Shown: positions 2,557 through 56,130 of the stretch, in pieces | How the letters are laid out: each line of letters opens with the position of its first letter | How positions within the stretch are numbered: position 1 is the first letter of the stretch | Sequence record: OK018184 | Strand: one strand, 5' to 3' | DNA from: Shigella phage CT01 | Length of the DNA: 64,000 bases | Made by a program: the position numbers and the translations under genes | The notes under the pieces: generated by a model | Seen by the model: the letters and a program-made list of their open reading frames with translations, nothing else | The model's database searches: none | Told to the model about the DNA's origin: nothing

Positions 2557-3135
2557 CTGGCTCATCCATTCTTTACGAAGGTCAGCATTATCTCCCATGA
2601 GCATTTCAAAAAGCTCTTTCCAGTTCTCAGGAAGTTTAACAACATCATATACTGGGTTTTGAATCATCTCACGATATTCAGATTTTTCCAAAGAGCCAAG
2701 TCCTTTAATATAACGGATGCTATGTTTAGGTAGAGCATCTTTGGCACTCTCATATTCAGCGACTGTATAAAACCATTCTTGTTTTTTACCGACCTGAGCG
2801 ATGATTACAGGAGTTTTGACAAAGCGAATTCTTCCTTGTTCAAACAGTTCTGGCCAATTACTAAAAAATCCGAGCAGAGAAGGATAAATGCTTCCTAGAC
2901 CATCATGGTCAGCATCAGTCATAATAGCAATATTATGATAATTCAAGTTTTCAGCTTTTTCACCGAGAACTAATCCAGTGATTGCGCAAATATCAAACAG
3001 TTCTTTGTTTTTAAGCATGTCAGCATATGACATGCCCCAACTGTTGAGAACTTTACCACGTAATGGATAACCACCGTGAAGTTCTTTATCACGAACATCA
3101 ATAAGATATCCGATAGCCGAATCACCCTCAGTCAA
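2554..3135 (-). CDS. 60: DNA topoisomerase II large subunit, C-terminal fragment (T4 gp60-equivalent region), separated from the N-terminal part by the insertion
   Basis: 193-aa ORF with ...IMTDADHDGLGSIYPSLLGFFSNWPELFEQGRIRFVKTPVIIAQVGKK... matching T4 gp60; DHDG codons are contiguous (no 50-nt bypass gap); begins at an internal Met inside repeat copy 1. Confidence 0.75.
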   Translation of the reverse strand: MTEGDSAIGYLIDVRDKELHGGYPLRGKVLNSWGMSYADMLKNKELFDICAITGLVLGEKAENLNYHNIAIMTDADHDGLGSIYPSLLGFFSNWPELFEQGRIRFVKTPVIIAQVGKKQEWFYTVAEYESAKDALPKHSIRYIKGLGSLEKSEYREMIQNPVYDVVKLPENWKELFEMLMGDNADLRKEWMSQ

Positions 3136-3227
3136 GAAAAGAGTAGTATCAGCATCTTTACCACAAAGATTCGCTTTAATATGTTTATGAACCTTAGCTT
3201 TAGAAGCCTTTTTAGCTGCTTTAGTTT
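2856..3227. repeat. direct repeat copy 1 (372 bp, identical to 3901..4272) within the topoisomerase large-subunit coding sequence
   Basis: Exact identity read from sequence; both copies encode TEGDSAIGYLIDVRD...SLLGFFSN. Confidence 0.9.
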
Positions 3228-3281
3228 ATGACTGCATTTTATGCCGCTAATTTATGAGCTGCAGTTGTTCGATGTGGTGGT

Positions 3282-3380
3282 TTCTTCAATCTGAAAGCCG
3301 AGGTCTGAAAGTTTTTGCTGGAAGCGAGCGATGGAATCTTCCAGAGCGGCATCTTTGCCGGGGATAAATGTTTGCGTCAT
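3282..3380 (-). pseudogene. ycaO: 5' fragment (33 codons) of a ycaO-like gene
   Basis: Encodes MTQTFIPGKDAALEDSIARFQQKLSDLGFQIEE, which I recall as the E. coli YcaO N-terminus; truncated at the PstI junction. Confidence 0.7.
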
Positions 3381-3509
3381 GAAAATCACTTTAGTCGTAC
3401 GGAAAGCGCGCAATAATACGGGTTTTATCTCAAAGGCGCTATCACCGCCGCCATGCCGATGAACTGTTGACTATGCTTTTAGCGGATAAACCACGTTAAG
3501 AGCATAAAA

Positions 3510-3786
3510 ATGAAGGCGTTCGATCTCCACCGTATGGCATTTGATAAAGTGCCTTTTGATTTCCTTGGCGAAGTTGCACTACGTAGTCTTTATACCTTTG
3601 TACTGGTTTTTTGTTCCTCAAAATGACCGGAAGACGCGGTGTGCGACAGATGTCGCTGTTTGAAGTGTTAATCATTCTCACGCTGGGTTCAGCGGCGGGA
3701 GATGTGGCGTTTTATGATGATGTGCCGATGGTGCCGGTACTTATCGTCTTTATCACTCTGGCGTTGTTATACCGCCTGGTAATATG
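3510..3786 (+). pseudogene. ycaP: 5' fragment of a ycaP-like (DUF421 membrane protein) gene, divergent from ycaO', with a frameshift
   Basis: Encodes MKAFDLHRMAFDKVPFDFLGEVALRSLYTFVLVF then, after a 1-nt frame change, MSLFEVLIILTLGSAAGDVAFYDDVPMVPVLIVFITLALLYRLV; divergent arrangement with ycaO as in E. coli (recalled). Confidence 0.55.
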
Positions 3787-3871
3787 ATGGCGAGCTGGCC
3801 TGGTCGAAACTCAATAACTCCAACATGACGGAATTTGAGTTCTTTATGGAGCTACTAGTTGAATGGACTAT

Positions 3872-5419
3872 TCAGCAATGCACATTAATTGATTTTAAAA
3901 AATTACTAAAAAATCCGAGCAGAGAAGGATAAATGCTTCCTAGACCATCATGGTCAGCATCAGTCATAATAGCAATATTATGATAATTCAAGTTTTCAGC
4001 TTTTTCACCGAGAACTAATCCAGTGATTGCGCAAATATCAAACAGTTCTTTGTTTTTAAGCATGTCAGCATATGACATGCCCCAACTGTTGAGAACTTTA
4101 CCACGTAATGGATAACCACCGTGAAGTTCTTTATCACGAACATCAATAAGATATCCGATAGCCGAATCACCCTCAGTCAAGAAAAGAGTAGTATCAGCAT
4201 CTTTACCACAAAGATTCGCTTTAATATGTTTATGAACCTTAGCTTTAGAAGCCTTTTTAGCTGCTTTAGTTTCTGCTGCTTTTTCTGCCGCTAATTTACG
4301 AGCCAAAGCAGCTTCAATAATCGGCATTAGAATTGCTTCATTATTTAGAATAGCACGTGAAATCTTTTTAGCATCAAGTTGAATATGACTACGGATTTCA
4401 CCAAATGGAGAAGTCAAACGCTCTTTAGTTTGAGAATCAAATCGCATGTTTTTCATATCACGGACAAACATAACGATAGTCAAACATTCTTTAACGCGTG
4501 CTTTAGTCACATCAATTTTGAACTTACGTTTGATTTGTGGAATAAGGTCTTCACAAATATCATCCATAACACAGTCAATGTGATGGCCACCATTCTTAGT
4601 GTGAATGTTATTCACATAAGTTAATTGACGAAAACCATCCGGTGAACGACCAACCGCAATAGAGCAATTTTCTTGTTCTTGAACGATAGCATGCTCATCA
4701 TATTGGCGTGCATATTTCTTAAAATTACCCTGAACCTTTTTACCATTAAAGGTAAATTGAATATCAGGATAAACTACTGCAAGTGTCTGGAGACGATCTA
4801 GTGTAATGTCAAGATAAACTTGAGATAGCTCATTAGTTTCAAATGACATAAAATCAGGAATGAAAGTAACGCGAGTTCCTTTCCATTTTCCAGGAATATC
4901 TTCCCATGATTTATTTTCCATGCCGTTTGAACAACGAACCACAATATTATTTTGACCGTCGCCAGTTTCACCGACAAACATCACAGAAAAAATGTTAGTT
5001 AAACTAGAACCAACACCGTTCATACCGCCAGTGACGCGTTCTTTATCATCACCAAAGTTACCACCTGCTTTTGGAATAGTCCATGCAGCAACTGGACCAG
5101 GAATTTCTTCACCAGTAGGTGTTTTAACCATCGCCTGTGGAATACCACGACCGTTATCTTCAACTGTTACTTGATTGTTTTTGATAGTAACATTAATTTT
5201 ATTTGCGAATTTAAACTTAGTACGAATACCTTCATCTACCGAGTTATCGATAATTTCATCAATAAGCTTAACAAGACCAGGTACATACTGAACACTTTCC
5301 CATTTACCAAACAGAAAGCGCTCATGCATTTCATTAGCTGAAGAGCCAATGTACATGCCGCTACGCTTTTTGATATGTTCAATATCGCTCAGAATTTTAA
5401 TTTCATTCTTAATCATCAC
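3872..5419 (-). CDS. 39: DNA topoisomerase II large subunit (gp39), N-terminal 515-aa product truncated by the insertion (ends ...SLLGFFSN-FLKSINVHC)
   Basis: GyrB-like ATPase and TOPRIM sequence; the last 8 codons are read from junction sequence. Confidence 0.85.
   Translation of the reverse strand: MMIKNEIKILSDIEHIKKRSGMYIGSSANEMHERFLFGKWESVQYVPGLVKLIDEIIDNSVDEGIRTKFKFANKINVTIKNNQVTVEDNGRGIPQAMVKTPTGEEIPGPVAAWTIPKAGGNFGDDKERVTGGMNGVGSSLTNIFSVMFVGETGDGQNNIVVRCSNGMENKSWEDIPGKWKGTRVTFIPDFMSFETNELSQVYLDITLDRLQTLAVVYPDIQFTFNGKKVQGNFKKYARQYDEHAIVQEQENCSIAVGRSPDGFRQLTYVNNIHTKNGGHHIDCVMDDICEDLIPQIKRKFKIDVTKARVKECLTIVMFVRDMKNMRFDSQTKERLTSPFGEIRSHIQLDAKKISRAILNNEAILMPIIEAALARKLAAEKAAETKAAKKASKAKVHKHIKANLCGKDADTTLFLTEGDSAIGYLIDVRDKELHGGYPLRGKVLNSWGMSYADMLKNKELFDICAITGLVLGEKAENLNYHNIAIMTDADHDGLGSIYPSLLGFFSNFLKSINVHC
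3901..4272. repeat. direct repeat copy 2 (372 bp, identical to 2856..3227)
   Basis: Exact identity read from sequence. Confidence 0.9.
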
Positions 5420-6562: not shown

Positions 6563-6734
6563 TACAATTTCCTCATTAATTGAACATTGGAGCGGTGCGT
6601 TTCAGAAGAGTATCAGCACCTTTAACGAATTATCCATTTTATTCTTCAAGTTGTTTTCTGTATCAGTAGTTGATATTGATATAGTACCATAATCAACTAC
6701 TGATGTATATAGTTTTATGAAAAAATTTTAAACT

Positions 6735-7842: not shown

Positions 7843-8340
7843 TTATCTCATTTCAATAAAATCTACGAGTTCAGCATGTGATTTGCGGAACATTACTTGG
7901 TGCCCGCCAATGATAACTTGGTCATCTGGCACTTCGTATACAGCAAGATAAAATCCTTTAGAAGATAATTCTTCCCGCTCTTCTCGTGTGAACCATCTCA
8001 TCATATCATATTCGCTAGCAAAAGCAAAATGATAAAGAGCTATAAACCATCCTGGAATATGATATTCTACTCCAACATAATCTTTCTTGAACTTAGTATT
8101 AATTACTATATTAGCGTTTTTAACTAATAGTTTATCTTCGTGTGGTAAAGGAATTCTTTTATTATCGCTATGATGCATAAAATTAGGTCTATCATAACCT
8201 ACGTGTAATAACCACTCTTCGCTCCATGAATCTATTATACTCCTGTACGGCGTTATTTGAACACAAAGATTTCGACGTATTGTTATAGCATCTTCATAAT
8301 CAAGAATACTAAACGATGATTCAACACGATAAATTTTCAT
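7843..8340 (-). CDS. hypothetical early protein
   Basis: ORF 7843..8379 in the track; ATG at 8338..8340 (MKIYRV) is preferred because the promoter -10 overlaps the longer start. Confidence 0.5.
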   Translation of the reverse strand: MKIYRVESSFSILDYEDAITIRRNLCVQITPYRSIIDSWSEEWLLHVGYDRPNFMHHSDNKRIPLPHEDKLLVKNANIVINTKFKKDYVGVEYHIPGWFIALYHFAFASEYDMMRWFTREEREELSSKGFYLAVYEVPDDQVIIGGHQVMFRKSHAELVDFIEMR

Positions 8341-8363
8341 TTTATTATCCTCAGTAGCTATGG

Positions 8364-8400
8364 TGTTATAATACCACAACTAACCGAGGAAGTAAACAAC
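8364..8400 (-). promoter_or_regulatory. T4-type early promoter
   Basis: Reverse strand GTTTAC ... TATTAT (gtaaac 8392..8397). Confidence 0.5.
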
Positions 8401-8403
8401 TTT

Positions 8404-9087
8404 TTATCGTTTTGTTGGAAGAGACAGAGGATCGCACTCTTCCTCTGACGGAGCATCTTCAAGACCCATAGCATATCGCAAAGCATACTTCATCATCAGA
8501 ATGTCTTTCGCACAGTCATGAATAGAATCATGTGCAACGAATCCATCTAAAGCTCCCTTTGGAAGAGGACATGTGGTCATATCACGAACAAGGAGAAGTG
8601 CTTCAATTCTGGTACGAATATCACGCTGATTCCAGAATTTACATGGTTCTAACTTAAATGTGTCAAGTTCATTCTCAGAAACGCCATTAAGACGTTGAAT
8701 ATCGCGAATGAGATCGACTAAAATTGGAAAATCAAACGACATTCCACGGCACCATCCTTGAGATTTCCAAGGATCGATGTTATGTGCATTGATGTAATCA
8801 TTAAATTTTACAATACCATCGATAGTGCTTACATCTTCATCTGATGGTGCAATATTTTTTCGAGCTTCAGGAGACTGATTTTTCCACCATTCGATAGTGC
8901 TTTTAGTAAAAAGACGATGTCCTTTTTGGCTTTTTAAATCAAATTTGATTTTAATGCCGCGCGAAACTAATTCATCAAACGTTTCAACTACTTCTGGATT
9001 AGGGTCAAAAGCAATTACAGCCAAATCAATAACAGCTGCTTTTTCACCACTTCCCATTGTTTCAAAATCTATAATAAAATCAAACAT
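8404..9087 (-). CDS. dexA: exonuclease A (DnaQ-like 3'-5' exonuclease)
   Basis: 227-aa ORF, length and sequence as T4 DexA; MFDFIIDFETMG N-terminus. Confidence 0.8.
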   Translation of the reverse strand: MFDFIIDFETMGSGEKAAVIDLAVIAFDPNPEVVETFDELVSRGIKIKFDLKSQKGHRLFTKSTIEWWKNQSPEARKNIAPSDEDVSTIDGIVKFNDYINAHNIDPWKSQGWCRGMSFDFPILVDLIRDIQRLNGVSENELDTFKLEPCKFWNQRDIRTRIEALLLVRDMTTCPLPKGALDGFVAHDSIHDCAKDILMMKYALRYAMGLEDAPSEEECDPLSLPTKR

Positions 9088-12079: not shown

Positions 12080-12682
12080 TTATAGATTAAATCCTTCAAA
12101 ATCAAGAGTATAGATAGTGTATGTTGAATACTTTTTATATTCATATCTATCCGCAATTCTAAATACACTTCCAGCTGGTATCATTACTTCTTGTTCATCT
12201 GAAACTAATTCCATATTACGATAGCGATGGCTATCTGGAAACTTAAAACTTGGACTATATTCTTTACAACGTAGAGCTTTTATAGCATACTCCTGAAAAT
12301 TAAATACCATAGGAGCTTTGAATTCAAAAATAACTTGTGTATTGTATTCTAATCCAGAAGCAAAATGTAGAGCTATATTTTTATCATATGAAGCTGATAC
12401 TACTTTATCAAATGTAATAATATCAATTCCTTGATTTAATACCTGCTTAGTCTCAACTGGAACACCTCTCCAAAGAGGTTTATCGTTTGGAACCAAACGA
12501 GATTTGATTATTTCATTTAACCAAGAGTGGTCGTCTGGCTTATTAGTAATACAATGAATTAAAAGTTCAATTTCAGATAAATTGAATCCTTCAGAAAGTA
12601 ATTCTTCACGAATAGAAGCACGCGCTGATGCATCCATTGATTTGATTTTAAAATCTTTTAATTGCATTGCTGAATATTTCAT
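12080..12682 (-). CDS. modA: ADP-ribosyltransferase ModA
   Basis: 200-aa ORF, size and position as T4 ModA; paralog of the adjacent ORF. Confidence 0.7.
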   Translation of the reverse strand: MKYSAMQLKDFKIKSMDASARASIREELLSEGFNLSEIELLIHCITNKPDDHSWLNEIIKSRLVPNDKPLWRGVPVETKQVLNQGIDIITFDKVVSASYDKNIALHFASGLEYNTQVIFEFKAPMVFNFQEYAIKALRCKEYSPSFKFPDSHRYRNMELVSDEQEVMIPAGSVFRIADRYEYKKYSTYTIYTLDFEGFNL

Positions 12683-13302
12683 TCAACTACCTCAATATCA
12701 TACACTTTAAATGTTCCAAATGAATCGTGTAATTTTTCTTTTGAAATAGAAGTTATTTTATACTTTCCAATTGGAATCATCCATTCTTGTTCACGCACAA
12801 TCATCATTAAGTTATCAGTACGTTCTGAATCTAATCCATCAGTATCTTCATATGTATACTTAAACTCAGTATTAGGAGAAGAAAGTATAATATCGCTGAT
12901 ATGGTCAGAGTAATTAAAAGCTTTATCAGTTTTTAAGCGAAATATTATTTCAGTGAAATACTCAACATAAGAAAAACCACACGCTGTGTGCAAACTAGTA
13001 GTAAATGAATCTACCCTGTTCGTTGAAAACACTTCTCCAACTTGTAAATCTTTAATGAGTTCTTTTGTCGATTTTGATATACCACGATATAGCTGATAAG
13101 GTGATTTAGTTAAATGCTTTTTAACGATTTTATTCAATTGCCGGTGAAGAGCTTCATTCTTTTTGGCTTCCATACATTGCCAAAGAACTGACTGTTCAAA
13201 GTCAGTAAATTTTTCACAGACCTTTTTATACATATCATATTGAAAATCAACACTTTCAGCTTTTATAGATAACTGTTCAACATCTACAAGATTAATAATC
13301 AT
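12679..13302 (-). CDS. modB: ADP-ribosyltransferase ModB
   Basis: ORF 12679..13314 in the track; the internal ATG gives 207 aa as in T4 ModB. Confidence 0.65.
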   Translation of the reverse strand: MIINLVDVEQLSIKAESVDFQYDMYKKVCEKFTDFEQSVLWQCMEAKKNEALHRQLNKIVKKHLTKSPYQLYRGISKSTKELIKDLQVGEVFSTNRVDSFTTSLHTACGFSYVEYFTEIIFRLKTDKAFNYSDHISDIILSSPNTEFKYTYEDTDGLDSERTDNLMMIVREQEWMIPIGKYKITSISKEKLHDSFGTFKVYDIEVVE

Positions 13303-18143: not shown

Positions 18144-18458
18144 TTAACCTCTATTCATAAAAGCATTAAAAATTTGGTCATCAATAGACTGTTTTTCTGA
18201 TGGTAATTCATATCCACATATTACAATTTTGTGATCAATATCAAAATACACAGAAGCAATATGATTAATGATGTTTTCAGTAAAATCTAAATCAACATCA
18301 ATATCTTTTTGACCGCAACCCAAAGGATAAATAATGCGAGTAATTCGATTATCTTTAACAAAGATTCCACCGACATACTCTGTGCTGCGTTTAAAGTCTA
18401 CACGCCGACGAAATGAAAAATATTCAGGCTCTTTATGAGCTCGGCTCATAGGACACAA
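18144..18458 (-). CDS. hypothetical early protein
   Basis: 104-aa ORF. Confidence 0.5.
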   Translation of the reverse strand: MCPMSRAHKEPEYFSFRRRVDFKRSTEYVGGIFVKDNRITRIIYPLGCGQKDIDVDLDFTENIINHIASVYFDIDHKIVICGYELPSEKQSIDDQIFNAFMNRG

Positions 18459-18487
18459 CGAGTAACTAGAATAAGAGATGTCAAATC

Positions 18488-18706
18488 CTACACCAAGTCC
18501 ATTAGATTATAATATGTAAAAGGCACCGGATTAACATCATTAGTCACAAGCACGTAATTAGCAACTGCTATAATTTCGTTGTTTTTAACGAATACAAACC
18601 GCGATTGATGCGAATGACCTGGACCTGCGTTTTCGCGATTAATGATATAACACTGGGCACCTTTATATTTGTACGTGTCTTTGCACTTGTGCATTTGATA
18701 AAGCAT
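18488..18706 (-). CDS. hypothetical early protein
   Basis: 72-aa ORF. Confidence 0.45.
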   Translation of the reverse strand: MLYQMHKCKDTYKYKGAQCYIINRENAGPGHSHQSRFVFVKNNEIIAVANYVLVTNDVNPVPFTYYNLMDLV

Positions 18707-24325: not shown

Positions 24326-24577
24326 TCATTCCTTCTCTCTGATGATAATTACTTGATTTTGCTGTACAGATTTTTTAGTTTCACCTGCAATTGACCAAAT
24401 AAAGGTAATAAACCAACCAATAATTGACCAGTTAAACAGTAAAGACGTGAAAAAGATTCCTACTGTCGATTTTGACCCACGCATTAAGGCGATGAACCAT
24501 GGAAGCATGTATATAATAATAGCCAACACGCCTGAAACTAAAACCATAAAAATTGAACCTGCTACTAAAGTTTCCAT
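24326..24577 (-). CDS. imm: superinfection immunity protein Imm
   Basis: 83-aa two-TM protein, size and position as T4 Imm. Confidence 0.8.
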   Translation of the reverse strand: METLVAGSIFMVLVSGVLAIIIYMLPWFIALMRGSKSTVGIFFTSLLFNWSIIGWFITFIWSIAGETKKSVQQNQVIIIREKE

Positions 24578-24584
24578 GTTTTCC

Positions 24585-24965
24585 TCACTTAGTCAAATTT
24601 TTTACACATGAATTATAAGAATTTACTACATACTCCATCGGAGCATTTTTACCGGTACGCCATTGGTAATTATTAGCCCAATTAGCCCAAAGCTCAGCGC
24701 AGTAGTTTTCAATTTTTTCTTCGCGTGTAATCACATCTGAATTGCGATATGCTTGGGCAGATTCATCTGGACGAATAGCTTCGTCAAAATTCGCCTGCAT
24801 TTGTTCTACTGTCTGTTTTGGAGCCTCTTTATAACACTTAACATTAGGATTATAAAATTTGCTTGAACAGTTTACAATTTTTCCTACATCAGACTGATTT
24901 ACTACCGGTCCTTGAGCTACACAACCAGTAAGACCCAATGCAATAACCAAAATAGCGATTTTCAT
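24585..24965 (-). CDS. predicted lipoprotein
   Basis: ATG at 24963..24965; MKIAILVIALGLTGC signal and lipobox; the track ORF 24585..25124 extends upstream through junction sequence from a GTG. Confidence 0.6.
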   Translation of the reverse strand: MKIAILVIALGLTGCVAQGPVVNQSDVGKIVNCSSKFYNPNVKCYKEAPKQTVEQMQANFDEAIRPDESAQAYRNSDVITREEKIENYCAELWANWANNYQWRTGKNAPMEYVVNSYNSCVKNLTK

Positions 24966-25019
24966 TTCATTCTCCAAATCCGCATCAGTTGATAGTTGTA
25001 TAGTACCATGGAAGAACAG
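24870..25019. repeat. direct repeat copy 1 (150 bp, identical to 25138..25287)
   Basis: Exact identity; covers the lipoprotein gene 5' end, RBS and promoter -10. Confidence 0.9.
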
Positions 25020-25137
25020 ACCTAATTGAACACCCAGCGTTCCATTAGTATTCATATGAAGATTATCATCAATTTTTATTGATACTTTACCATTCATGTG
25101 AATAACAGTATTAGATTCAATCACATCTCTGACTATC
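25020..25137. other. 118-bp segment between the direct repeats, origin unknown
   Basis: Open on the minus strand (VIESNTVIHMNGKVSIKIDDNLHMNTNGTLGVQLG), closed in all plus frames. Confidence 0.6.
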
Positions 25138-25233
25138 GTTTACAATTTTTCCTACATCAGACTGATTTACTACCGGTCCTTGAGCTACACAACCAGTAAG
25201 ACCCAATGCAATAACCAAAATAGCGATTTTCAT
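25117..25233 (-). pseudogene. truncated duplicate of the lipoprotein gene 5' end (38 codons)
   Basis: MKIAILVIALGLTGCVAQGPVVNQSDVGKIVN then DSQRCD-stop from junction sequence. Confidence 0.6.
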
Positions 25234-25287
25234 TTCATTCTCCAAATCCGCATCAGTTGATAGTTGTATAGTACCATGGAAGAACAG
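25138..25287. repeat. direct repeat copy 2 (150 bp)
   Basis: Exact identity to 24870..25019. Confidence 0.9.
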
Positions 25288-25300
25288 GGATGTAAACAGT
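25262..25300 (-). promoter_or_regulatory. T4-type early promoter (intact copy)
   Basis: Reverse strand GTTTAC (gtaaac 25292..25297) ... TACTATACA. Confidence 0.5.
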
Positions 25301-25385
25301 TTTGTGAAAAAATTTTTAATGAATTCCAGAGGTCCAGAATCATCTATTTTTCCTAAGTATAGATTTATATTACTTGTATGAAAAA

Positions 25386-25401
25386 GGGACCCGGAGGTCC
25401 C
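25386..25401 (-). terminator. tetraloop hairpin downstream of gene 43
   Basis: gggacc-cgga-ggtccc inverted repeat. Confidence 0.4.
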
Positions 25402-25414
25402 CAGATTTATTCTA

Positions 25415-39506: not shown

Positions 39507-39533
39507 ATCAAATCCTCAAAGGCAATTCATATG

Positions 39534-39569
39534 TTAATAATACCACAGTTTGAACTTCTTGTAAACAAC
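39534..39569 (-). promoter_or_regulatory. T4-type early promoter
   Basis: Reverse strand GTTTAC-18 nt-TATTAT (gtaaac 39561..39566). Confidence 0.5.
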
Positions 39570-39647
39570 TTTGTGAAAATTATTTTAGGGAATGATAAGA
39601 AGCGAATGATAGTTAGAATGGTAATATACAGAATGTGAGAAAGAAAG

Positions 39648-39663: not shown

Positions 39664-39987
39664 TTAGTCTTCTATGATATCTCTATCATATCCAAGTGAA
39701 ATGAGAGTTTCTTTGAAGTGTTTAATGTTCTTTTGTCTAGAATCATTGATGAAAATGACTGGATAACGAATGTTAAGAGATGTAAATCCAGCGCGTTTAG
39801 CAAGAGATACAATCAGTGGACGATCATACTCAATCTTACCATTATTTGTAAGAACTTTATAGAAAGTAAAAGGAGCATTGAGCTCCTTTAGAAGTTTTGT
39901 AACTGATTGACATCCAGGACAACGACCTACTTCTTCGGGGATGCCATAGATTTCAATCTTATTCTTTAAGTTCGAGTTTTGTTCCAC
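39664..39987 (-). CDS. nrdH: glutaredoxin-like NrdH
   Basis: 107 aa with CPGC redox motif. Confidence 0.7.
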   Translation of the reverse strand: MEQNSNLKNKIEIYGIPEEVGRCPGCQSVTKLLKELNAPFTFYKVLTNNGKIEYDRPLIVSLAKRAGFTSLNIRYPVIFINDSRQKNIKHFKETLISLGYDRDIIED

Positions 39988-40246
39988 GAGAAATAATTCC
40001 TTGATAAGCCCAGTATGGCGGGTTAACAGAATTCAGTTTGTTAGTAATTTTATCCAGACGCTCATTGAATTCGCTAGAAGATAAGCCTTTTTCTGGAGAA
40101 ATTAAGCTAATCACGAAAAATATAGCAATAAAAGGAATAAGGAAAATAGCTCCAACTGCCATAAACAAAAAGAACGTTACAGTTGTAAGAAAATCAGCTA
40201 AACCTTTACGAAATTTATACATATTTACCCTTAATTGATTAACCAA
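39959..40246 (-). CDS. hypothetical membrane protein
   Basis: 95-aa ORF with a hydrophobic helix. Confidence 0.4.
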   Translation of the reverse strand: MVNQLRVNMYKFRKGLADFLTTVTFFLFMAVGAIFLIPFIAIFFVISLISPEKGLSSSEFNERLDKITNKLNSVNPPYWAYQGIISRGTKLELKE

Positions 40247-42621: not shown

Positions 42622-43091
42622 TTTAAACTCTTTCTAAGCTGCTTCTTAAATGAAGCTATTAATTGTGTTTTAGTGTCAGATTCATTATATTCAAATCCTC
42701 TTTGAAGCATCTCAGCCATCATTTCCTCTTTTCCTAAACGAGAAAATTCCTTTGATTTATCTCCAACGAAGTTAGGGTGAATATTATTTTGGGTGTAATC
42801 GGATTTTAAATAAGTAAGTAAATTTTCTAACCATTCAAGATAATCAACACCTTGTCCCTTTAAGCCAGAACGATTAAATTTATGTTTCATTTGACCTTCT
42901 GCAGCATTGCAGAGATTACATAGCAACCCACGTACCTTTCCTGCTTTTGGTCCATTTAATTCATGGTCATGGTCAAGGTGATTAGCTTGAACATCAGGAT
43001 TTAGTTCTCGTTGGCAAATTAAGCATTTACCGTTTTGTGCATTATAAAATTTTTGTTTTTCTTCTTTGTACAATTTGCCAGTCAATAACAT
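42618..43091 (-). CDS. 49: endonuclease VII gp49 (Holliday junction resolvase)
   Basis: 157 aa; zinc motif CLICQ...HLDHDH...CNLCN; length as T4 EndoVII. Confidence 0.9.
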   Translation of the reverse strand: MLLTGKLYKEEKQKFYNAQNGKCLICQRELNPDVQANHLDHDHELNGPKAGKVRGLLCNLCNAAEGQMKHKFNRSGLKGQGVDYLEWLENLLTYLKSDYTQNNIHPNFVGDKSKEFSRLGKEEMMAEMLQRGFEYNESDTKTQLIASFKKQLRKSLK

Positions 43092-43356
43092 AATAAACCC
43101 TTACCTTAAATAGATAAGGGTATTTATTATTTTCAAGTATTAAAATGCTCGTTCAGAAAAAGAAATTTGAGTTTCAAGAAGTTCTCGTTGGCAAATTAAG
43201 CATTTACCGTTTTGTGCATTATAAAATTTTTGTTTTTCTTCTTTGTACAATTTGCCAGTCAATAACATAATAAACCCTTACCTTAAATAGATAAGGGTAT
43301 TTATTATTTTCAAGTATTAAAATGCTCGTTCAGAAAAAGAAATTTGAGTTTCAAGC
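43003..43356. repeat. tandem duplication, 2 x 177 bp, spanning the gene 49 start and upstream hairpin
   Basis: 43003..43179 and 43180..43356 identical except for the last base. Confidence 0.9.
43140..43268 (-). pseudogene. duplicated gene 49 5' end (30 codons) fused in frame to the last 12 codons of the upstream gene
   Basis: MLLTGKLYKEEKQKFYNAQNGKCLICQREL-LETQISFSERAF. Confidence 0.6.
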
Positions 43357-50377: not shown

Positions 50378-50401
50378 TTTCTGTTCCTCCGTAGTTGATA
50401 G

Positions 50402-50438
50402 TTGTATAGTACCATAGAGGAACAGTCTTGTAAACCAC
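50402..50438 (-). promoter_or_regulatory. T4-type early promoter
   Basis: Reverse strand GTTTAC (gtaaac 50430..50435) ... TACTATACA. Confidence 0.5.
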
Positions 50439-50752
50439 TAAAAGAAACTTCTTTCACAATTTTTTCCACTGAACCATGCGCTCACTGCTTTCTTAGTCTC
50501 AGGAGCAGTGTTATCCATAAACCATTCAAAGGCAGCCTTTTTATGATTCTGGAGGGCTTCTCGGGCTTTAATCTGCTCACGGTCTATTAACACTAACATA
50601 TGAGCCTTTCTTGTCACCATGGGCTTCTTATGATTTTTTGAATACTCCCAGTCATTTGTCCATCGCATTGTCGTTGCGAACTTAAATACTGCTTCTTTAA
50701 TTTTAGTTTCGTAAATTTCACGAGCCTTTGAGTATAACATCATTACCTCCAT
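50438..50752 (-). CDS. hypothetical protein
   Basis: 104-aa ORF. Confidence 0.45.
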   Translation of the reverse strand: MEVMMLYSKAREIYETKIKEAVFKFATTMRWTNDWEYSKNHKKPMVTRKAHMLVLIDREQIKAREALQNHKKAAFEWFMDNTAPETKKAVSAWFSGKNCERSFF

Positions 50753-50841: not shown

Positions 50842-51822
50842 TTATTTCAGAAGAGTAACCTCAGCAATTTCTTCCCAACCGTTTTTGTCGGTCATAATAA
50901 AGTCAGCAAGATAAAGAGCAGTACGCAGTGAAACATTGCGTAAACGATTAACATTAACTTTCATCCATGATAATGCTTTATAAGTTTCTTCATCAGAAAG
51001 ACCGCGCTTTTGCATCATGTCAGTTGAAAGAATAACATCTTCAACCCTGACCATAATTTCTTCATTAGTGTGAACACCCAAATCCAAATAAACCGAGCGG
51101 GACACTAATGCTTGTAAATGTGGAGCAAGTTTAGTACCACGGTCTAATTCGCGGTCAATGTCAACGTTTGTGATAAAAACAATCGTTCCTTTAAATTCAA
51201 ACTCACGCTCAATGCCTTTTTCTTCTAAGTAAGAAGATGCGGTGCTCCAGCAGACTTTACGGGTCTCTCCAGTGTCCAGAGCAGCTTTCAGAAGATTAAG
51301 AATGTCCATATCAGAGAAAACATCCACATCATCAATCAAAAGGACAGAATTCTCTTCACGATTATTCCAAAGCTGTTCATAAAGACCGATACCAGAGATT
51401 TTACCATTAATGCTTTTATATTCAATGTATCCATTATCATTTGCTTTATTCAAAGCTTTATCTAAAGAATACGTTTTACCAATACCCGCCGCACCAGAGA
51501 TAATTAATGAACGAATATTTCCGTTAATAATACCATTCGTCATCATTCCCATAACATTAAATCTTTTATTAATGCGGGTTTTCATATCTTCATATGATTC
51601 TTTAACTTCTTCAACTTTTACACCATCATATGAAATGTCTGATTTGTAAACCCAAACACCGCGACGCTTACCGTCAATTTCAACAAAAACTTTACCATCT
51701 CCTTGTGCATCTACCGGAGCATTATCTGGGAACCATTCACCTAAGAGCTCAAAAGTTCCAGAGATTTCTTTACCGAAGTAGATACCCTTATTGATAGTTA
51801 CAGTTTTCATTTTATTCTCCAA
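50842..51822 (-). CDS. P-loop ATPase
   Basis: 326 aa with Walker A GAAGIGKTYS and Walker B-like LLIDDVD. Confidence 0.6.
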   Translation of the reverse strand: MENKMKTVTINKGIYFGKEISGTFELLGEWFPDNAPVDAQGDGKVFVEIDGKRRGVWVYKSDISYDGVKVEEVKESYEDMKTRINKRFNVMGMMTNGIINGNIRSLIISGAAGIGKTYSLDKALNKANDNGYIEYKSINGKISGIGLYEQLWNNREENSVLLIDDVDVFSDMDILNLLKAALDTGETRKVCWSTASSYLEEKGIEREFEFKGTIVFITNVDIDRELDRGTKLAPHLQALVSRSVYLDLGVHTNEEIMVRVEDVILSTDMMQKRGLSDEETYKALSWMKVNVNRLRNVSLRTALYLADFIMTDKNGWEEIAEVTLLK

Positions 51823-51842
51823 TTTTACATTTGTTTTGATAG

Positions 51843-51879
51843 GGTAATAGTATCACACTACTACCCTGCTGTAAACAAT
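51843..51879 (-). promoter_or_regulatory. T4-type early promoter
   Basis: Reverse strand GTTTAC (gtaaac 51871..51876) ... TACTAT. Confidence 0.5.
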
Positions 51880-52143
51880 TTATTTTAATGTTTGCCAAAT
51901 TTTTACTGCTTCGCGACGAGATACTTCTACGGCGCCAAGTTCTATAGCTTTTTGGCGTCGCCGAGCGTGTAAGTCATAATGTTTAATGCGTTTATCTTGA
52001 AACCAAGAACGTTTCATTCCTATTGCTTCTGCCATTTCATGAAGCTCTTCAATATCTCCATCAGTGAACATATGACAATTTTTAGTTGGATGACCGCGAA
52101 GTTTCCATCCATGATTCATTAAAACATCTACGTAAACTGTCAT
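51880..52143 (-). CDS. hypothetical protein (intact copy)
   Basis: 87-aa ORF MTVYVDVLMNHGWKLRGHPTKN... Confidence 0.55.
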   Translation of the reverse strand: MTVYVDVLMNHGWKLRGHPTKNCHMFTDGDIEELHEMAEAIGMKRSWFQDKRIKHYDLHARRRQKAIELGAVEVSRREAVKIWQTLK

Positions 52144-52306
52144 TGATTCTTCTCCAAATACATTCCTATTGCTTCTGCCATTTCATGAAGCTCTTCAATA
52201 TCTCCATCAGTGAACATATGACAATTTTTAGTTGGATGACCGCGAAGTTTCCATCCATGATTCATTAAAACATCTACGTAAACTGTCATTGATTCTTCTC
52301 CAAATA
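52015..52306. repeat. perfect tandem duplication, 2 x 146 bp, spanning the 5' end of gene 51880..52143
   Basis: 52015..52160 identical to 52161..52306. Confidence 0.9.
52140..52289 (-). pseudogene. duplicated 5' fragment (43 codons) of gene 51880..52143 ending in YLEKNQ-stop
   Basis: Second ATG at 52287..52289 inside repeat copy 2. Confidence 0.55.
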
Positions 52307-52435
52307 AGTTTCGATAATTTTCTGAGCGAGATAAACTGCATTATCTTCAGTTGCATCTTCTAAGAAACTTTCAAAACACTCTGAAATTTCTTCTGTGTCA
52401 ATCAACTTTTTTACTTCAATTGGTGTAATTTTCAT
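52286..52435 (-). CDS. hypothetical small protein
   Basis: Track ORF 52286..52504; start at MKITPIEVKK downstream of the promoter; stop overlaps the next start (ATGA). Confidence 0.45.
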   Translation of the reverse strand: MKITPIEVKKLIDTEEISECFESFLEDATEDNAVYLAQKIIETYLEKNQ

Positions 52436-52467
52436 TTTGTTTTTCCGTTTAAGTGTTTGTTTTGATA

Positions 52468-52505
52468 GTTGTATAGTACCATAAAGCTTTATGCTTGTAA
52501 ACAAT
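52468..52505 (-). promoter_or_regulatory. T4-type early promoter with A-rich upstream element
   Basis: Reverse strand aaaaatttttcacaaaattGTTTAC (gtaaac 52497..52502) ... TACTATACA. Confidence 0.55.
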
Positions 52506-52532
52506 TTTGTGAAAAATTTTTGAAATAAAAAA

Positions 52533-52550
52533 GGGAGCCCGAAGGCTCCC
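52533..52550 (-). terminator. UUCG-tetraloop hairpin
   Basis: gggagcccgaaggctccc. Confidence 0.45.
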
Positions 52551-52552
52551 TA

Positions 52553-53566
52553 TCATTTATAATAACTTCGGTGGTTTTCAAGATAAACCCTCTCAAGGAA
52601 GTCATCCCAAAAACCCATGTCTACTTTTTGCTGCATACCGTTCTTAGAAGCTTCAGTAGATGCTGCTTCTACTTGATCGACCACATCTTCCAAAAACTCT
52701 TGAACCGTTTTAAATGGATGTTTACCCAACTTCACGTCGAGAATAAATGGAGCATCTTGGAGTGGATAAACCAAGTCACCAGTTTTGTAAATTTCCAATA
52801 GTTGGAGTCCACCACGGCAAGCATGACTCAGAGCTTTCCAGTCAATACCTTCATTGGCTTCGGCCTTACGAGCACGTTCACCGTATTCAGCATCTAATTT
52901 GTTCAGTGACTGCTTAAGCTCAATAAGAGAAAGCGTTGTCTGATATTTACGACCCAACACTGTGTAGAACGTCTGTGGGCCTGTTTTCTCATGATTATGG
53001 AATACCCATTCGCAGAATTCGTTCTCTGGAAGACGATGCTTAATATCTTCAACTTTAGTACGACGTTGTCCTTGTGTTCCATCTTCTCGGTAATCAACCC
53101 ACTGATCGGGGATTTGATTAACTACTTTCAATACATCACGTAATGCAGCCAAACGAGAACCCTTAACACCATATTTAGAAGCTTGCTTGCGGACATATCC
53201 TAAATAGGATTTCATGTTAGTCGTATAAAAACGAGAACGATTGTCTTGAATAAACTTCCATACATCAGGCAAATCAGATTTAACCACTAGCTCAGGTGGA
53301 GTGTGAAGCATATCCAATGCTACAGTTTCACCATCTGCTGCTAATTTAAAGAAATACTTAAGACTGTATAGTTCATGGTCAATATCATCTTTAGTGTTTT
53401 TAGATGATGTGTTGTTAGTGTTTTTACTCATATGCTCTTTAACATTTCCGATAAGAATATCACGAGCAGGAGGAACAAAGATTTCTTTAAAATCTACATC
53501 AGATTCTGGAGTAGAAGTTCCATAAAGATGACTACCGAAATAGCTTTTCATTACTGTTTTCATCAT
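52553..53566 (-). CDS. hypothetical protein (conserved large ORF)
   Basis: 337-aa ORF. Confidence 0.55.
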   Translation of the reverse strand: MMKTVMKSYFGSHLYGTSTPESDVDFKEIFVPPARDILIGNVKEHMSKNTNNTSSKNTKDDIDHELYSLKYFFKLAADGETVALDMLHTPPELVVKSDLPDVWKFIQDNRSRFYTTNMKSYLGYVRKQASKYGVKGSRLAALRDVLKVVNQIPDQWVDYREDGTQGQRRTKVEDIKHRLPENEFCEWVFHNHEKTGPQTFYTVLGRKYQTTLSLIELKQSLNKLDAEYGERARKAEANEGIDWKALSHACRGGLQLLEIYKTGDLVYPLQDAPFILDVKLGKHPFKTVQEFLEDVVDQVEAASTEASKNGMQQKVDMGFWDDFLERVYLENHRSYYK

Positions 53567-56040: not shown

Positions 56041-56065
56041 GATGTTCTCCTCTTTATCCGATGGT

Positions 56066-56101
56066 TGTATAGTATCACAGCTCAAATGGAAAGTAAACCA
56101 G
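56066..56101 (-). promoter_or_regulatory. T4-type early promoter
   Basis: Reverse strand GTTTAC (gtaaac 56093..56098) ... TACTATACA. Confidence 0.5.
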
Positions 56102-56112
56102 TAAAATGAAAA

Positions 56113-56130
56113 AGTCTCCCGAAGGAGACT
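56113..56130 (-). terminator. UUCG-tetraloop hairpin
   Basis: agtctcccgaaggagact. Confidence 0.45.

Follow-up and report, generated by a model that had tools for sequence, protein, structure and literature searches.

The 150-nt direct repeat between imm and gene 43 is most probably not a real feature of the phage genome. It is likely to be a false duplication that arose in template- or scaffold-guided assembly, rather than a structure of the phage DNA. The reasons begin with the repeat itself: its unit is the junction of a haplotype that lacks an optional small gene, the sequence between its two copies is the middle of that gene, and the two fit together in the exact register of the haplotype that carries it. 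Taken at face value, the record suggests that promoter and leader are duplicated, that a truncated paralogue of the lipoprotein gene exists, that the topoisomerase gene is split and contains host DNA, and that there are two further chimeric ORFs, all of which is probably false.

The window, by which we mean the whole 64-kb stretch of DNA analyzed here, covers the leftmost 64 kb of a T4-like genome (Tequatrovirus), and its genes lie on the minus strand. The local order is gene 43 (DNA polymerase, 28111-25415), the repeat locus, imm (24577-24326), a 49-aa ORF, gene 42 and a glucosyltransferase gene. As the initial annotation had described, positions 24870-25019 and 25138-25287 are 100% identical over 150 nt, with 118 nt (25020-25137) between them. 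Read on the minus strand, the repeat unit comprises 54 nt with the promoter -10, the 5'UTR and the Shine-Dalgarno sequence, followed by the ATG and 31 more codons (MKIAILVIALGLTGC...) of a lipoprotein gene; the -10, the ribosome-binding site and the first 32 lipoprotein codons that had been ascribed to it are thus all present in the sequence.

The intact lipoprotein gene lies at 24585..24965 on the minus strand. It encodes 126 aa with the lipobox LTGC, holds the Imm.1 position adjoining imm, and belongs to Pfam DUF5481 (phrog_1754), matching PF17578 at 239 bits against a cutoff of 27; a DUF5481 gene is found between gene 43 and imm in all relatives compared. At the other end of the locus, a terminator scan found an intrinsic terminator hairpin on the minus strand just downstream of gene 43 (25385..25402). 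The hairpin is conserved in the alignment with HY01, G8, and SH_GT, and a terminator is annotated here in G8. It is followed by a T4-early-type promoter, (G)TTTACA-17-TACTAT with an upstream TG, identified by a promoter scan and in the sequence (25268..25296, minus strand).

The promoter is complete only with the gene-43-proximal copy of the repeat (25138..25287, minus strand; copy 2 of the initial annotation), which carries the 54 nt of -10, 5'UTR and Shine-Dalgarno sequence and the 32 lipoprotein codons. A 38-codon chimeric ORF on the minus strand (25117..25233; MKIAILVIALGLTGCVAQGPVVNQSDVGKIVNDSQRCD followed by a stop) opens in this copy and consists of the 32 lipoprotein codons, then six codons and a stop in the fragment between the copies, which it enters in a shifted frame; this is the truncated ORF reported earlier at 25233-25117. 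The distal copy (24870..25019, minus strand; the earlier copy 1) is joined to the intact lipoprotein gene. Its -35 had been described as lost, and the end of the intervening fragment indeed occupies that position; the promoter scan called no promoter for this copy. We also recovered the reported minus-strand open frame of the 118-nt segment, which runs in frame into the lipoprotein ORF of the distal copy as a mechanical ORF of 179 aa (25124-24585). The novel parts of the locus are its two junctions, ...AAATTGTAAAC/GATAGTCAGAG... and ...CAATTAGGT/CTGTTCTTCC..., or, given in another extent, ...GGAAAAATTGTAAAC/GATAGTCAGAGATG... and ...GTTCAATTAGGT/CTGTTCTTCCATGG....

Alignment with relatives identified the 118 nt (25020..25137, minus strand) as codons 33-71 of an optional small gene, here called gene A (phrog_4189; 77-85 aa, no Pfam family), in its usual site and orientation. 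Gene A sits between gene 43 and the DUF5481/Imm.1-like lipoprotein gene, directly behind the terminator and the early promoter. In HY01, G8, SH_GT, and many others it separates the lipoprotein gene from the promoter; Nami, T4, and others have no gene A, and their lipoprotein gene comes straight after the promoter. The segment is found in 322 of the 532 phage records that have the locus, and about 60% of Tequatroviruses carry gene A. All 322 matches lie at the homologous site, with a best identity of 97.5%, which rules out the 118 nt as foreign DNA. The initial annotation was right about the anatomy of the locus, but its implication that a segment had been inserted from elsewhere is not supported, the 118 nt being the middle of the gene that normally occupies this site in sister phages. 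The segment differs from its best database matches by a 1-nt insertion (CAGAGATG versus CAGA-ATG) and two substitutions, and two of these three differences fall within its first 11 nt. The variant with the additional nucleotide is absent from IMG/VR.

The same alignment showed the 150-nt unit to be precisely the empty-site junction of the haplotype without gene A. Gene A and the lipoprotein gene both start with ATGAAAAT, and the order in the window is promoter, UTR, ATG and lipoprotein 5' end, then the middle of gene A, then UTR, ATG and the lipoprotein gene. Judged by these alignments, what looks like an "insert" is sequence resident in the sister haplotype and not foreign DNA. The real biology beneath is an ordinary presence/absence polymorphism, of a known kind, of a small ORF next to an Imm.1-like lipoprotein gene. 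It is modest, and T4 itself, with no gene A in its imm-43 region, is an empty-site haplotype.

Relatives also bear on whether the locus could hold a conserved, ancient pair of paralogous lipoprotein genes that share a promoter-leader module. Many relatives do align without a break over the whole 1.4 kb and have two small genes there, both of which start with ATGAAAAT and encode hydrophobic N-termini. In these relatives, however, the 5' sequence of the upstream gene (phrog_4189) is its own and contains no copy of the lipoprotein leader, a short spacer without a promoter copy comes after the gene's 3' end, and the 150-nt repeat occurs in none of them. The alignment refutes a conserved two-paralogue arrangement, and we give this explanation practically no credence.

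The closest match to the locus is a Logan contig (DRR827156, our L009), found by an exact-product look-up of gp43. It lacks gene A and is 100% identical to the window over 28393-25138 and 25019-24447, so that the sole difference is the extra 268 nt in the window. The proximal copy (25138..25287) is identical to the empty-site junction of phages without gene A, and the identity to this contig runs at 100% through the whole copy. The two junctions were found together in one piece in none of 50,697 phage records, and neither was present in IMG/VR; searches of the JGI metagenome and the GTDB genome collections, with one junction each, gave no match. Conserved gene order in related phages, which had been named beforehand as the observation that would speak against the initial reading, was accordingly not seen among these phage records. 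The products of the 38-aa ORF and of the 515-aa chimeric topoisomerase described below are not on record in the gene index. A contig identical here but for the extra 268 nt, together with junctions and chimeric ORFs found nowhere else, argues for an assembly artefact.

The locus is also in exact register with the gene-A haplotype. In relatives with an 85-aa gene A (L001, L012, L019, and L020), 96 nt lie between the UTR and the part of gene A that corresponds to the fragment, and 268 nt between the end of the UTR and the lipoprotein ATG. The window has the same two spacings, 96 and 268 nt. In place, 96 nt of the lipoprotein gene stand over 96 nt of gene A, and 54 nt of UTR stand over its last ~55 nt. 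The span of the whole locus is 1401 nt in HY01 and 1401 nt in the window.

The repeat is one of four in the window. The initial annotation had drawn a parallel to an event in the topoisomerase gene, with repeat, insert and repeat in the same order, and the parallel holds, although the repeat there is 372 nt long, not 300. This event (2856..4272, minus strand) sits within the gene for the topoisomerase large subunit and consists of a perfect 372-nt repeat (2856-3227 and 3901-4272) around a filler of 673 nt (3228-3900). The filler is a patchwork of 32 nt of degenerate topoisomerase sequence, 23 unassigned nt, E. coli ycaO/ycaP DNA, and a 45-nt inverted piece resembling modA/B. The E. coli part (3283-3783 and 3786-3855, about 570 nt at 99.8-100% identity) holds the 5' end of ycaO, the intergenic region and ycaP, with an internal deletion of 67 nt relative to the E. 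coli C2 reference; all six top genomes listed align to it in two pieces. The last piece (3856-3900) is an inverted copy, at 88.9%, of the modA/modB junction region of the window itself (12646-12689). The first piece (3228-3259) has seven differences in its 32 nt. With two of three differences in the first 11 nt at imm-43 and seven in 32 nt here, substitutions and indels cluster beside the junctions. The topoisomerase gene is split into pieces of 515 and 193 aa; the gene-39 homologue of HY01 has 516 aa.

The other two events are tandem or nearly so. At gene 49 (43003..43355, minus strand), a perfect 176-nt repeat (43003-43178 and 43180-43355) has a single nucleotide between its copies. The unit runs from the 3' end of pin through the intergenic region to codon 30 of gene 49, and it is the empty-site junction for a 166-nt 49.1-like gene that is present in HY01 and Nami; the product is a 42-aa gene-49/pin fusion ORF. 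The event at 52 kb (52015..52306, minus strand) is a perfect 146-nt tandem duplication (52015-52160 and 52161-52306). Its unit comprises the end of a 49-aa gene and the first 43 codons of a DUF4031-like gene, and it yields a 49-aa DUF4031-like fusion ORF. Phage P922 is without the 146-nt duplication and otherwise 100.0% identical over 1.5 kb. All three sister repeats thus lie across either a gene boundary or an empty insertion site, and each yields a truncated chimeric ORF. There is zero microhomology at the 146- and 176-nt tandem junctions, which, together with the E. coli DNA and scrambled pieces of the topoisomerase filler, again argues for an artefact.

We then took a census of exact repeats of at least 30 nt in the window (64 kb) and in parts of HY01 (56 kb), Nami (50 kb), T4 (60 kb), and PBM-1 (50 kb). 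The window contains exactly four, of 372, 150, 176, and 146 nt, and none was found in the 50-60 kb of any of the four relatives. Four against none is far beyond chance, and it too supports the artefact reading.

The sizes of the four events follow the layout of another genome. We removed one copy and the filler at each event and aligned the de-duplicated window to HY01. There are six breaks of colinearity in 56 kb, and HY01 is longer at exactly four of them, which are the four repeat sites. The excess of HY01 is 1042 nt at the topoisomerase event, where the repeat period is 1045 nt; it is ~268-270 nt at imm-43 (period 268 nt), 166-169 nt at gene 49 (period 177 nt) and 142 nt at 52 kb (period 146 nt). 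The offset between the window and HY01 shifts by only +3, 0, +8, and +4 nt across the topoisomerase, imm-43, gene 49, and 52 kb events. The filler corresponds to the excess minus the repeat, with 118 nt expected and 118 observed at imm-43 and 670 expected and 673 observed at the topoisomerase event; at gene 49 and at 52 kb the repeat is longer than the HY01 excess, and just 1 or 0 nt of filler is present. No duplication accompanies the segments (376, 300, 266, 879, and 995 nt, and others) that are specific to Nami, T4, or PBM-1 and have no counterpart in the window. The duplications occur only at extra segments of the HY01 type and are therefore associated with one layout, not with polymorphic sites in general. 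At 18189-18704 (+193 nt) and 39961-40026 (+35 nt) the window is longer than HY01; modules are replaced there, with no duplication.

Because all four repeats restore HY01-like spacing, and recombination cannot know the spacing of another genome, the match in spacing is read as a property of the coordinate system, that is, of a template or a gap size. The following course of events would account for it. The phage that was sequenced would be of the T4/Nami type, with no gene A and with the DUF5481 gene directly behind the early promoter 3' of gene 43. The record would have been built on the coordinates of a genome or haplotype with the 268-nt gene-A segment, which could have been a reference used for scaffolding or consensus, the draft of another, co-occurring haplotype, or a gap in the scaffold whose size was taken from the template. 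The bridging sequence of the true empty-site junction would then have been laid down from both sides. On the promoter side, 96 nt of the lipoprotein gene would have been written over the 5' part of gene A; on the lipoprotein side, 54 nt of promoter and UTR would have been written over its 3' end. The middle 118 nt would be left over as gene-A sequence, giving junction, remnant and junction over the same total length as in the gene-A haplotype. The 150-nt unit would fit one bridging read that served to extend both sides. Elsewhere, the remaining space would keep the template sequence or take whatever reads were at hand, host reads included.

We infer both the pipeline and the identity of the template. 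HY01 itself may have served: on sequence comparison its layout fits, and its gene-A fragment is not identical to that of the window. T4 was rejected as a template; it has an empty site at imm-43 and differs in length at many other places where the window has no anomaly. PBM-1, whose coordinates nearly coincide with those of the window, was rejected as well, as its start lies at rIIB, its topoisomerase gene is uninterrupted and a 49.1-like gene is missing. Two specific assembly errors were also discarded. A mis-walk through shared k-mers in a de Bruijn graph does not suit junctions that share at most a few bases, and extension by a fixed length on each side does not suit the observed values of 338/98, 54/88, 37/136, and 338/336 nt, which follow no consistent rule.

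Several observations count against an artefact. No database phage matched as the template: the gene-A fragment of HY01 differs by five substitutions and one indel, and even the best database match to the 118 nt reaches only 97.5%. Gaps filled from a reference would have given a mobA-type cassette in the topoisomerase gene, not E. coli DNA, so at least two filling behaviors are needed. The HY01 length matches are close but inexact at three sites (+3, +8, and +4 nt), and the window exceeds HY01 in length at two sites that show no anomaly. In addition, each event keeps one intact copy of every affected gene, the topoisomerase gene excepted, and a real phage with such structures would thus probably be viable.

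The main rival explanation is a genuine and very recent insertion-duplication. During a mixed infection by a phage without gene A and a phage with it, two template switches in aberrant recombination-dependent replication would have doubled the 150-nt segment of promoter and 5' gene end and taken up 118 nt of gene A as templated filler; tandem duplication by the same process would account for the other three events, with fillers of 673, 1, and 0 nt. Perfect copies within flanks identical to those of natural relatives fit a recent event. Junction 1 lies at an imperfect microhomology at equal offset in both genes (ATTGTAAAC versus ATTGAAAAT), and the patchwork fillers, including the inverted 45-nt phage piece, resemble the products of multiple template switches. 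An intact gene copy is kept in every event except the topoisomerase event, and there the split mimics the natural 39/60 split, at 515 aa against the 516 aa of the HY01 gene-39 homologue. However, this process leaves unexplained why four independent events should restore HY01-like spacing to within 0-8 nt and why the register at imm-43 is exact. It would also have to place E. coli ycaO/ycaP DNA inside a topoisomerase gene and produce junctions matched in no other record or contig searched. We therefore regard it as unlikely.

What is known of duplications in T4 points in the same direction. Direct repeats flank the inserted DNA in the classic tandem duplications of the T4 rII region and in the insertion-duplications that single-crossover integration leaves in the T4 insertion/substitution vector system. 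Such structures are expected to be unstable, homologous recombination reducing them to one copy, and from T4 genetics repeats of the present size are expected to be unstable. Against this background, a genuine insertion-duplication would require four direct repeats of 146-372 nt in 64 kb of a highly recombinogenic phage, with none in four relatives. The known T4 duplications are single, were selected or designed, and have sizes independent of any layout; the four in the window, in contrast, match the spacing of another genome. Illegitimate recombination would be expected to leave short homologies at the junctions and events whose size and position are independent of layout. At imm-43, junction 1 has an imperfect 7/9 match and junction 2 none, the 146- and 176-nt tandem junctions lack microhomology as well, and the events track HY01-type extra segments. 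A mobile element fits no better: the 118 nt contain no transposase or endonuclease ORF, and the only inverted repeats near the boundaries of the locus are weak (79-86%) and unrelated to those boundaries. A target duplication of 150 nt is far outside the usual range of mobile elements.

The genetic setting of the locus resembles that of PeSL exchanges. In T4-type phages, PeSL modular shuffling is associated with the presence or absence of small ORFs next to promoter-terminator cassettes (Arbiol et al. 2010, PMC2839356; Comeau et al. 2014, PMC4122927), and the existence of mini-circles a few hundred bp in size has been shown in RB49/phi1 (PMC2839356). Gene A is likewise optional and lies behind a terminator stem-loop and an early promoter, which are PeSL-like; its two haplotypes join at the shared SD/ATGAAAAT region, and its presence or absence is the type of polymorphism attributed to PeSL exchanges. 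A 268-nt circle of the junction segment and part of gene A (unit plus fragment), integrated into a genome without gene A in the manner of Campbell and leaving direct repeats, would give the exact structure in the window. Yet no parental structure yields the required circle: if gene A were excised between the ATGAAAAT/SD regions shared there, the resulting circle would consist of gene-A sequence alone, and its re-integration would restore the ordinary gene-A haplotype. A PeSL exchange leaves a site filled or empty, unlike the present locus, where the empty-site junction is doubled around an internal gene fragment. A cassette would consist of a complete ORF with a promoter and stem-loop on both sides; the insert is an internal 39-codon fragment, and the distal copy has neither a -35 nor a stem-loop. 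The length matches at the other three sites would also go unexplained, and we hold an origin by PeSL-type shuffling or a mini-circle to be very improbable.

A false duplication in assembly has closer precedents. False duplications appear as two copies on a single scaffold with a gap, or a wrongly filled one, in between, and often at places where two haplotypes differ (Ko et al. 2022, PMC9516828; VGP 2021, PMC8081667). The imm-43 locus likewise has two identical copies close together with filler between them, and the fillers of its sister events are 673, 1, and 0 nt. In all four cases the event lies where haplotypes differ in structure, and its length follows the alternative haplotype; false extra or truncated gene models are produced. 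The events are absent from the L009 contig (268 nt) and from P922 (146 nt), which are otherwise 100% identical. The published cases come from large diploid eukaryote assemblies, where read-depth and read-pair signals are diagnostic, and ours from a 170-kb phage; the likeness is one of structure. The exact register and the preserved length point more specifically to joining constrained by a template or by gap size.

These would be false gene gains, and one of them a false transfer from host to phage, liable to spread into annotation and pangenome analyses, and flagging the probable false duplications protects such downstream work. The comparison of repeat periods with the indel sizes of relatives, followed by that of the register of the filler, is a diagnostic that can be reused for other phage assemblies. 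If all four structures were real, they would be snapshots of aberrant recombination-dependent replication in a mixed infection, with empty-site junctions duplicated and filler taken from a co-infecting phage (118 nt) and from the host (about 570 nt), and would give a direct view of T-even phages splitting genes and acquiring foreign DNA; we consider this quite unlikely.

The comparisons with close relatives yielded some further observations. Identity to the L009 contig falls abruptly inside imm, at 24447/24446, from 100% to about 97% beyond. The breakpoint lies some 420 nt away from the repeat and is a mosaic boundary such as is usual in Tequatroviruses. Exact look-ups of gp43, the DUF5481 protein and the 282-aa glucosyltransferase, made to find another parent for the right-hand side, retrieved only contigs that are 97-98% identical there. 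P922 is 100% identical to the window at 51400-52900 and only 97.5-98% identical at 16.8-33 kb. In a related metagenome contig (L026, positions 7900-8622; ENA ERZ13405067 NODE_21), uvsX is split by a 240-aa ORF with a NUMOD3 domain, likely a homing endonuclease; the uvsX region of the window aligns without this ORF. Finally, the early promoter at 25268..25296 belongs to a family of six early-promoter-like repeats of about 60 nt in the window (TTGATAGTTGTATAGTACCAT...GTAAAC on the plus strand), located at 6670-6729, 25257-25316, 39526-39585, 50395-50454, 52462-52521, and 56058-56117. These are natural dispersed regulatory repeats that stand outside the artefact, and the imm-43 promoter is one of them.
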